This document shows positions 3,044 through 3,444 of a DNA stretch of 32,000 bases, one piece after another. A model generated the notes under the pieces. That model was not told the DNA's origin. It made no database searches and saw nothing but the letters and a program-made list of their open reading frames with translations. The translations under genes were made by a program, and so were the position numbers. Source of the DNA: Fibrobacter succinogenes subsp. succinogenes S85 (lineage in GTDB: Bacteria; Fibrobacterota; Fibrobacteria; Fibrobacterales; Fibrobacteraceae); the NCBI RefSeq assembly GCF_000146505.1, contig NC_017448.1, forward strand, positions 210,001-242,000. The letters run 5' to 3'. The stretch's first letter is position 1. Every line of letters starts with the position of its first letter.

Positions 3044-3118
3044 GATTTTATCTCCTATTTTAAATTCTTGATCCCCAGTGTTTTTGTTTGAGTGGGGAGT
3101 TTTTTACGCCGATACATT

Positions 3119-3135
3119 AGCAAAAGCCGTGCCAA
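3119..3135 (-). promoter_or_regulatory. Sigma-54 (RpoN) type -24/-12 promoter upstream of dnaK
   Basis: The minus strand reads TTGGCACGGCTTTTGCT. This matches YTGGCACGrNNNTTGCW at all specified positions with canonical GG..GC spacing. It lies 76-92 nt upstream of the dnaK ATG. Confidence 0.6.
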
Positions 3136-3444
3136 CCCCGAAAAGCGCCCTTTTTGTTTCGTTCTGAAACAAGTTTAAGGCGAAAATAGGGCAAAAAAGG
3201 GGCTGTTTCAAAAAAGAACGCCCTACAGCGTCATCCAGACGACTGCTGGGAGGAAGGATCCAGTGATGTCTTGAATAGGGGAGGGGGAAGAATCCCCCTG
3301 ATTGCAGCCCCGGCAATGTCTAAGCAATCAGGCTCCCCTTGCCTAGCACGTCATTGCGAGGAACGTAGTGACGATGCAATCCATAGCCAAGTCTTCCGTC
3401 ACCCCCTCGCCTAAGGGGACACCCCTTAAAAACCCCGAATTGTC

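Follow-up and report, generated by a model that had tools for sequence, protein, structure and literature searches.

Putative sigma-54-type promoters with a phased palindromic upstream element at the dnaK and grpE chaperone genes of Fibrobacter succinogenes S85

Sigma-54 (RpoN) type promoters have been predicted at chaperone genes before, in phyla other than Fibrobacterota. A 2025 survey (PMC12316311) reports that, in Bacteroidota and Planctomycetota, such promoters are enriched at the genes for GroEL, GroES, GrpE, DnaJ, DnaK and IbpA, citing Sabree et al. 2009 for grpE/groES of B. thetaiotaomicron and F. psychrophilum. In the parts available to us it names no activator for either phylum; Fibrobacterota do not appear in its text, and F. 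succinogenes S85 is listed solely in its supplementary table on RpoN domain architectures. Here we describe a 32,000-nucleotide stretch of the genome of Fibrobacter succinogenes subsp. succinogenes S85 (NC_017448.1, positions 210,001 to 242,000; hereafter the window, with positions counted from its first letter), in which the chaperone genes dnaK and grpE are each preceded by a −24/−12 element of the sigma-54 type and, further upstream, by a palindrome. The best explanation of these features, and one which we hold to be likely, is a sigma-54 chaperone circuit with an NtrC-type activator bound to the palindrome, in which the dependence on sigma-54, the identity of the palindrome-binding protein and induction by stress are all predicted from sequence.

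Fibrobacter is an important degrader of cellulose in the rumen. To our knowledge, heat-shock control in the Fibrobacteres–Chlorobi–Bacteroidetes (FCB) group is poorly known, its members being generally without sigma-32 and many of them without HrcA. There are precedents for sigma-54 acting with an NtrC-type activator at a heat-shock gene: HsfA/HsfB of Myxococcus xanthus is a sigma-54 activator system of the heat-shock gene lonD, and ibpB of E. coli has a sigma-54 promoter. However, these are single accessory genes in hosts which otherwise use sigma-32 or HrcA, whereas in Fibrobacter it is the core genes dnaK, grpE and groES which carry the predicted sigma-54 promoters, with no other promoter evident. 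HrcA with its operator, the controlling inverted repeat of chaperone expression (CIRCE), acts on the same genes and occurs in deeper Fibrobacteria, with hrcA placed between groEL and grpE, but it differs in exerting negative control on a sigma-70 promoter.

In the window, dnaK (633 aa; 1142–3043, minus strand; Pfam HSP70, E = 1e−265) is preceded on the same strand by TTGGCACGGCTTTTGCTA at 3118–3135, 75–92 nt upstream of the ATG at 3043. This contains an exact match to TGGCAC-N5-TTGCW at 3119–3134 (GG at 3133–3132, GC at 3121–3120) and agrees with an earlier, sequence-only reading of this DNA, which had placed an element of the RpoN consensus 76–92 nt upstream of the ATG. The nearly identical element which that reading had reported upstream of grpE (233 aa; 8238–8939, minus strand; Pfam GrpE, E = 4e−45) was also found, as TTGGCATGGTATTTGCTA at 9005–9022 on the minus strand, ~66–83 nt upstream of the ATG at 8939. 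Its core (9006–9021) has one mismatch to the same pattern, a T for C at position 6, and this variant was also seen in related loci. The GG-to-GC spacing is exactly 10 nt in both elements and, judging from the position of the −24/−12 element, the transcription start site of dnaK is predicted near 3108–3109. Two details of the sequence-only reading had to be corrected: it gave the gap as TGGCA-N7-TTGC and saw no further match in the window, but N7 has 0 matches and the true gap, N6, has 3 (TGGCA-N6-TTGC; 0.47 expected, with 1 of 100 shuffles reaching 3), the third exact site lying at 12783–12798 upstream of a glycoside hydrolase gene.

No other promoter was evident at these genes. Scanning for sigma-70 promoters near dnaK and grpE gave matches at chance level only, and a check by eye upstream of the chaperone genes recognised no sigma-32 element (CTTGAAA-N13-15-CCCCATNT). 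The CCCCACTC in the 5′ untranslated region (5′ UTR) of dnaK has no −35 at the correct spacing and, by eye, is not conserved. CIRCE, which had earlier been said to be missing, had 0 matches in the window even with ≤ 3 mismatches, and Rfam families gave none.

We found that the element is conserved throughout the Fibrobacteraceae. A scan of a genome collection with DnaK gave 80 loci, of which 26 were from Fibrobacter/Fibrobacteraceae, 18 from other Fibrobacterota and 36 from outgroups (loci are referred to below by L numbers), and the sequence upstream of the dnaK ATG was searched for TGG[CT]A-N6-T[TG]GC. The element was present 49–91 nt upstream of the ATG in 25/25 Fibrobacteraceae loci which hold upstream sequence, spanning DnaK identities down to 83%; at the same stringency it was found upstream of dnaK in no locus outside the Fibrobacteraceae, including 0 of 37 outgroup loci. 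Its spacer bases differ among loci (GGCT, GGGT, GCGG, GACT, GCAT, ATAT and others), and positions which the pattern leaves free also fit the sigma-54 consensus, with T before TGG, CG after TGGCA, TT before TTGC and T after GC. Many Fibrobacteraceae loci have the same element in front of grpE, L019–L022 and L024 have it in front of groES, and grpE of the Fibrimonadaceae has the same upstream promoter with CGGCAC at −24. Exact motifs numbered 56 in 417 kb of Fibrobacteraceae loci vs 3 in 565 kb of outgroup loci. The sequence-only reading had asked whether the motif is conserved in other Fibrobacter genomes and whether the genome holds rpoN at all; the motif is kept upstream of dnaK, grpE and groES across the Fibrobacteraceae, and S85 carries rpoN as Fisuc_1239, which is listed with all three domains (AID-CBD-DBD) in the supplementary table of PMC12316311. 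Fibrobacteres genomes are also listed with RpoN in PMC3372290.

The palindrome accompanies these promoters closely. The inverted repeat TTGTTTC-N5-GAAACAA which the sequence-only reading had noticed at 3154–3172 is indeed there (TTGTTTCAGAACGAAACAA as read on the minus strand), with a core 15-mer at 3156–3170 which lies 21 nt upstream of TGGCAC. At grpE, where that reading had seen only a recurring half-site, TGAAACAA at 9050–9057, the half-site is real and is included in a palindrome, GTTTCACATTAAAAC (9041–9055, minus-strand reading), 19 nt upstream of TGGCAT. The family palindrome, GTTTCA-N3-TGAAAC (consensus tGTTTCAaaatGAAACa), occurs in one or two copies 10–113 nt upstream of TGGCA and was present at every chaperone promoter examined. 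With ≤ 1 mismatch the window holds 2 palindromes vs 0.11 expected, both of them directly upstream of the dnaK and grpE promoters, and of 60 palindromes in Fibrobacteraceae/Fibrimonadaceae loci, 57 have a sigma-54-like motif ≤ 140 nt downstream. A candidate weak second site at dnaK, GTTCTTTTTTGAAAC (3205–3219, minus-strand reading), lies 70 nt upstream of TGGCAC; its right half is perfect, its left half has 3 mismatches and it overlaps the tail of a terminator-like hairpin. In related F. succinogenes-type loci a second palindrome site is found at a gap of 81.

The distances between palindrome and promoter fall into steps: 10, 20–22, 32, 41–42, 49–52, 61–64, 71–73, 81–85, 93, 103 and 113 nt. These gaps are phased with a period of 10.3 bp (Rayleigh R = 0.73; 0 of 20,000 random sets were as good), and the phasing persists once duplicate values are collapsed. 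Such a constraint to one helical face is as expected of an activator which must reach the polymerase, and we propose that the palindrome is the binding site of a cognate enhancer-binding protein.

The arrangement is not new in kind, because Bacteroidota chaperone loci have an analogous architecture. In this sister phylum within the FCB group the same gene set lies behind −24/−12 promoters (PMC12316311), and there is no sign of sigma-32 or CIRCE control. Bacteroidota dnaK loci among those we examined have TTGGCAC-N5-TTGT/TTGA 48–72 nt before the ATG and a TGACA-N5-TGTCA palindrome upstream of it (L051, L058, L061–L063, L067, L069–L071, L073, L079 and L080). They differ from Fibrobacter in the palindrome, which is GTTTCA-N3-TGAAAC in the latter, and in the −12 element, which is TTGT/TTGA as against the canonical TTGC. 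An analogous dnaK element, ~104 nt before the ATG and with an upstream palindrome, was also seen in Treponema (L056). Our literature search found no paper describing sigma-54 chaperone promoters for Fibrobacterota, the only earlier published hints being genome-wide sigma-54 motif predictions in Bacteroidota; Francke et al. 2011 mention neither Fibrobacter nor chaperone genes specifically. The claim of novelty made in the sequence-only reading therefore holds in part: nothing was found for Fibrobacterota, but promoters of the same kind had already been predicted for Bacteroidota/Planctomycetota (PMC12316311). What appear to be undescribed are the details, namely the enhancer sequence, its helical phasing and an operon-encoded candidate activator. 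At the level of sequence the core of that reading, a sigma-54 chaperone circuit, stands; the exclusivity of its two hits and the extent of its novelty do not.

As for the activator, six-frame translations of the window and of the Fibrobacter dnaK loci contained no GAFTGA motif, so the activator would be unlinked to dnaK in the genus. A candidate is encoded in the Fibrobacteres metagenome-assembled genome (MAG) locus L026, where the gene order is groES-groEL-grpE-dnaK-dnaJ-(PIN)-bEBP, the last gene encoding a bacterial enhancer-binding protein (bEBP) with PF00158 (8e−70), an AAA lid, HTH_8 (3e−13) and a weak Response_reg match (33 bits). In ten loci of deeper Fibrobacteria, the gene immediately after dnaJ encodes a full-length homologue of this protein, at 50–53% identity; in an eleventh, L034, the bEBP is cut by the end of the locus (239 aa, 50% identity), and in L209 and L211 a bEBP gene also lies directly after dnaJ. 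The helix-turn-helix (HTH) sequence LGISR(S/A/T)TLWRKL is found in nearly all of 120 family representatives. Two members named as Fibrobacter sp. by their source (P0118 and P0119) have 481 aa and 56% identity to the L026 protein over full coverage, and P0118 has PF00158 (4e−71) and HTH_8 (8e−15), with Response_reg just under the cutoff at 29.6 bits. By its predicted domains, a Sigma54_activat AAA+ domain, a C-terminal Fis-type HTH_8 and a divergent N-terminal receiver, the candidate qualifies as an NtrC-family bEBP.

In Fibrobacter the bEBP gene is the third in an apparent operon, after genes for a PAS/HATPase_c kinase (790 aa) and a stand-alone receiver (124 aa) (L201–L204; 5273–9446 in L201), and in L210 a related bEBP gene lies downstream of a giant GH9 gene and a hybrid kinase gene. 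The S85 genome paper (Suen et al. 2011) describes the neighbourhood of Fisuc_0393 and Fisuc_0397 and a sigma-54-type response regulator, Fisuc_0397, in this strain. The L210 neighbourhood fits that description, and Fisuc_0397 is therefore probably the S85 orthologue of the candidate activator. Among the 120 representatives the loop which contacts sigma-54 reads GAFTGA in 27 and GSYTG(S/A) in 79, the rest being intermediates (GAYTGA, GAYTGS, GSFTGA); GAFTGA was found in the L026, L209 and L211 types. A change from F to Y in the GAFTGA loop is tolerated in PspF. The residue at or near the expected phospho-acceptor of the receiver is D, E, A, N or V/P, as judged by eye from segments in a divergent domain whose alignment is uncertain; the receiver domain may be atypical, and the activator could take its input from the kinase or from the chaperones.

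A parallel to the DNA recognition of this protein came from a metagenome scan with a composite pattern of palindrome and promoter. Most of the listed matches are chance ones in unrelated high-GC organisms; among the matches listed there are dnaK, groES and clpB examples and a parallel with PrpR, and none is a new member of a Fibrobacter regulon. In Proteobacteria, prpB promoters have a palindrome of the same type 43–45 nt upstream of TGGCAC-N5-TTGC in at least 8 loci (L102, L104, L120, L121, L163, L170, L174 and L187). Six prpB loci among the matches listed encode a sigma-54 activator with a Fibrobacterota-like HTH, only that of L121 being a Pfam-confirmed PrpR. The HTH recognition segments are nearly the same (LGISRTTLWRKLK in PrpR, LGISRSTLWRKLK in Fibrobacterota), and with the palindrome beside a PrpR-type HTH, HTH type and palindrome type therefore pair in an established sigma-54 system, which makes the pairing useful as a specificity code for such HTHs. 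We found no publication giving a sequence for the PrpR site. The likeness is one of DNA recognition and not of family membership: identity between PrpR and the Fibrobacterota bEBP is 36–39%, and PrpR has a PrpR_N sensor (PF06506; seen in the L121 PrpR but in neither the L026 protein nor P0118) and serves propionate catabolism, whereas the Fibrobacterota protein has a divergent receiver and a chaperone linkage.

Several metagenome contigs carry GTTTCA-N3-TGAAAC with TGGCAY-N5-TTGC upstream of chaperone genes (L166, L088 and L182 at dnaK, L128 at clpB). The DnaK proteins of these contigs are only ~68–70% identical to that of any locus fetched, and the sigma-54 chaperone circuit may extend beyond Fibrobacterota.

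In the deeper Fibrobacteria, with the order groES-groEL-hrcA-grpE-dnaK-dnaJ-bEBP, groES is preceded by a sigma-70-type promoter and a perfect or near-perfect CIRCE, an element which we found in 8 of their loci. In L031, L033, L034, L039 (5904–6030) and L042 this promoter reads TTGAxT-N17-TATATT and is followed by CIRCE, with a palindrome at about −81. CIRCE (TTAGCACTC-N9-GAGTGCTAA) is absent from all Fibrobacteraceae loci (≤ 4 mismatches) and no linked hrcA was found in them; in L019–L022 the groES and grpE promoters are ~2.15 kb apart, which would leave no room for hrcA. Within hrcA itself, upstream of grpE, 9/9 loci examined contain GTTCCA-N3-YGAAAC followed after 126 nt by TGGTAC-N5-TTGC (loci in the L031–L043 range, for example ~8972–9127 in L039). 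Only 6 of 100 third-codon positions in this stretch of hrcA are invariant, and all 6 are among the 7 that fall in the motifs (P = 6e−9). This confinement of invariance to the motifs suggests that an intragenic sigma-54 promoter in hrcA drives grpE-dnaK-dnaJ-bEBP, the operon which ends in the activator gene. Since the deep lineages have both systems and the Fibrobacteraceae are without CIRCE, sigma-54 control of chaperones seems ancestral to the phylum and, in the Fibrobacteraceae, is apparently the only visible control left. Read as a series in evolution, the loci run from deep lineages with both HrcA/CIRCE and sigma-54 to Fibrobacteraceae with only sigma-54.

In the mechanism which we propose, RNA polymerase carrying sigma-54 would bind TTGGCAC-N5-TTGCT at dnaK and grpE (and at groES in related Fibrobacteraceae) and be held there as a closed complex. 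An AAA+ bEBP, as dimers or a hexamer, would bind GTTTCA-N3-TGAAAC, aligned to the same helical face, and use ATP to open this complex. The likeliest activator would be the Fibrobacterota-wide NtrC-family protein with the HTH LGISR(S/A)TLWRKL, whose gene is the last in the grpE-dnaK-dnaJ operon of deeper lineages and part of a kinase-receiver-activator operon in Fibrobacter. This circuit would form the phylum's chaperone regulon, responding to heat shock or proteotoxic stress, and would work beside HrcA/CIRCE in the deep lineages.

A number of points weigh against this circuit. An rpoN-box search of six-frame translations found rpoN in neither the window nor the Fibrobacter dnaK loci. The candidate activator gene of Fibrobacter is unlinked to chaperone genes, and its kinase-receiver-bEBP operon has no upstream palindrome or −24/−12 motif, which were looked for as signs of autoregulation. 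In both Fibrobacter and deep-lineage candidate activators the sigma-54-contact loop is GSYTGS and not GAFTGA. In the deep lineages the palindrome is also found in front of the sigma-70/CIRCE promoter of groES, 38–39 nt upstream of its −35, where no action of a sigma-54 activator would be expected. Chaperones need basal expression, which is not obviously given by a purely activator-dependent promoter, and stress induction is assumed from the identity of the genes alone.

We regard a broader version of the circuit as possible, though doubtful. In it, the core chaperone regulon would be run through sigma-54 and one dedicated activator whose gene was ancestrally inside the grpE-dnaK-dnaJ operon; the receiver of this activator would be divergent and possibly independent of phosphorylation, and its GSYTGS loop a non-canonical contact with sigma-54. 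The activator could sense proteotoxic stress by being titrated by DnaK/DnaJ, a feedback like those of sigma-32, HspR and HSF but with an AAA+ bEBP at its core. In the Fibrobacteraceae the circuit would have fully displaced HrcA/CIRCE and been rewired to a PAS histidine kinase, and the promoters in L128, L166 and L182 would extend it past the phylum.

Of the other explanations, the one which survives best accepts the sigma-54 promoters as real and has the palindrome bound by a different protein (a repressor, co-regulator or architectural factor), with the true bEBP encoded elsewhere and the dnaJ-linked protein acting on other targets. The fixed position of the palindrome at the sigma-70/CIRCE groES promoter of deep lineages would fit such a protein, as would the GSYTGS loop of the Fibrobacter orthologue and its lack of linkage to chaperone genes. 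We nevertheless think it rather unlikely, since the palindrome is the sole conserved upstream element and sigma-54 promoters require an upstream activator site. It is also phased with the promoter over 10–113 nt, which is typical of activators acting through looping, the dnaJ-linked HTH matches that of PrpR proteins beside a palindrome of the same type, and the deep-lineage activator gene lies in the operon directly after the intragenic palindrome and promoter.

An improbable alternative makes TTGGCAC-N5-TTGCT an operator for some other DNA-binding protein, for example a remnant of CIRCE or a replacement for it, with transcription from an unrecognised promoter of the sigma-70 family. The element is near-palindromic (TTGGCA...TGCTAA), like shortened CIRCE arms (TTAGCAC...GTGCTAA), but its invariant positions and exact 10-nt GG–GC spacing are those of sigma-54, including the consensus bases in the flanks which our pattern did not impose. 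A weak sigma-70-like TTGAAA-17-TATTTT does occur at 3211–3183; at 9/12 it is a chance-level match, however, and is situated upstream of the enhancer. In loci with dnaK immediately after grpE, moreover, the ~110-nt intergenic region consists only of palindrome, spacer, −24/−12 element and 5′ UTR. The presence of rpoN in the genus and the predicted sigma-54 dependence of the same architecture in the sister phylum (PMC12316311) also speak against an operator. Finally, chance matches in AT-rich intergenic DNA would account for the pattern with 2 mismatches being no commoner than in shuffled sequence (16 observed vs 16.7 expected) and for the site at the glycoside hydrolase gene not being conserved, but as the origin of the dnaK and grpE sites chance is refuted by the excess of exact sites over expectation, their conservation at orthologous positions in 25/25 genomes and their adjacency to a specific, phased palindrome, and it is left for the glycoside hydrolase site only.

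The sigma-54 chaperone circuit, with an NtrC-type activator on the palindrome, now has a concrete form for Fibrobacter: promoters, a 15-bp helically phased enhancer, and a candidate activator, named along with its kinase partners. If it is true, rpoN and this activator would control essential chaperones, which would matter for stress tolerance in the rumen and for the design of promoters in Fibrobacter genetics, and the family would provide a natural test of whether GSYTGS loops can engage sigma-54. A dedicated activator with a mechanism of chaperone feedback would, if proven, raise the interest of the finding further.

The third exact match in the window, TGGCACATATTTTGCT at 12783–12798 on the minus strand, is intergenic, ~120 nt upstream of a GH5/CBM4_9 glycoside hydrolase gene (11044–12663, minus strand; Pfam) and directed at it. 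This gene is annotated as a mannanase by some sources, and no protein identical to its product is on record. Orthologous loci at 80, 71, 67 and 62% identity, among them the syntenic L205, do not have the motif, and there is no palindrome upstream of it; because it is neither conserved nor accompanied by a palindrome, we left this site out of the chaperone regulon. It could be a chance or a lineage-specific match. Another sigma-54-like series was seen in L017, where an intergenic tandem array at 8056–8282 (55 bp × 4.1 copies, 97% matches) carries TGGCACGATTTTTGCA on the minus strand in each unit, a sigma-54-like motif string without the palindrome. The sigma-54-like sites which are not at chaperone genes, these two among them, are all without the palindrome.

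Elsewhere, the window encodes a protein with a Fib_succ_major domain. Two Fibrobacter MAGs have a DnaK 100% identical to the one found here. A terminator-like hairpin, GACGCTGTAGGGCGTT, lies at 3217–3232 on the minus strand and is followed by a T-run. Between the dnaK enhancer region and a plus-strand open reading frame at 3445–4041, which has no Pfam match, there are ~200 nt of non-coding sequence (3232–3440). The predicted 5′ UTR of dnaK (~65 nt; 3044–3109, minus strand) contains a 6-bp hairpin, pairing 3098–3093 with 3077–3072, and a Shine-Dalgarno sequence AGGAGA, and the 5′ UTR of grpE has a small hairpin at 8965–8978 on the minus strand. Neither fold (3072–3098; 8965–8978) is thermodynamically significant when taken as a single sequence (z = −1.1 and 0.0, respectively). 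Short GC-rich leader hairpins at dnaK, grpE and groES were also seen in L001, L002, L010, L011 and L018–L024; by eye, their sequence varies by species and their position is kept, just 5′ of an AT-rich stretch and the Shine-Dalgarno sequence.

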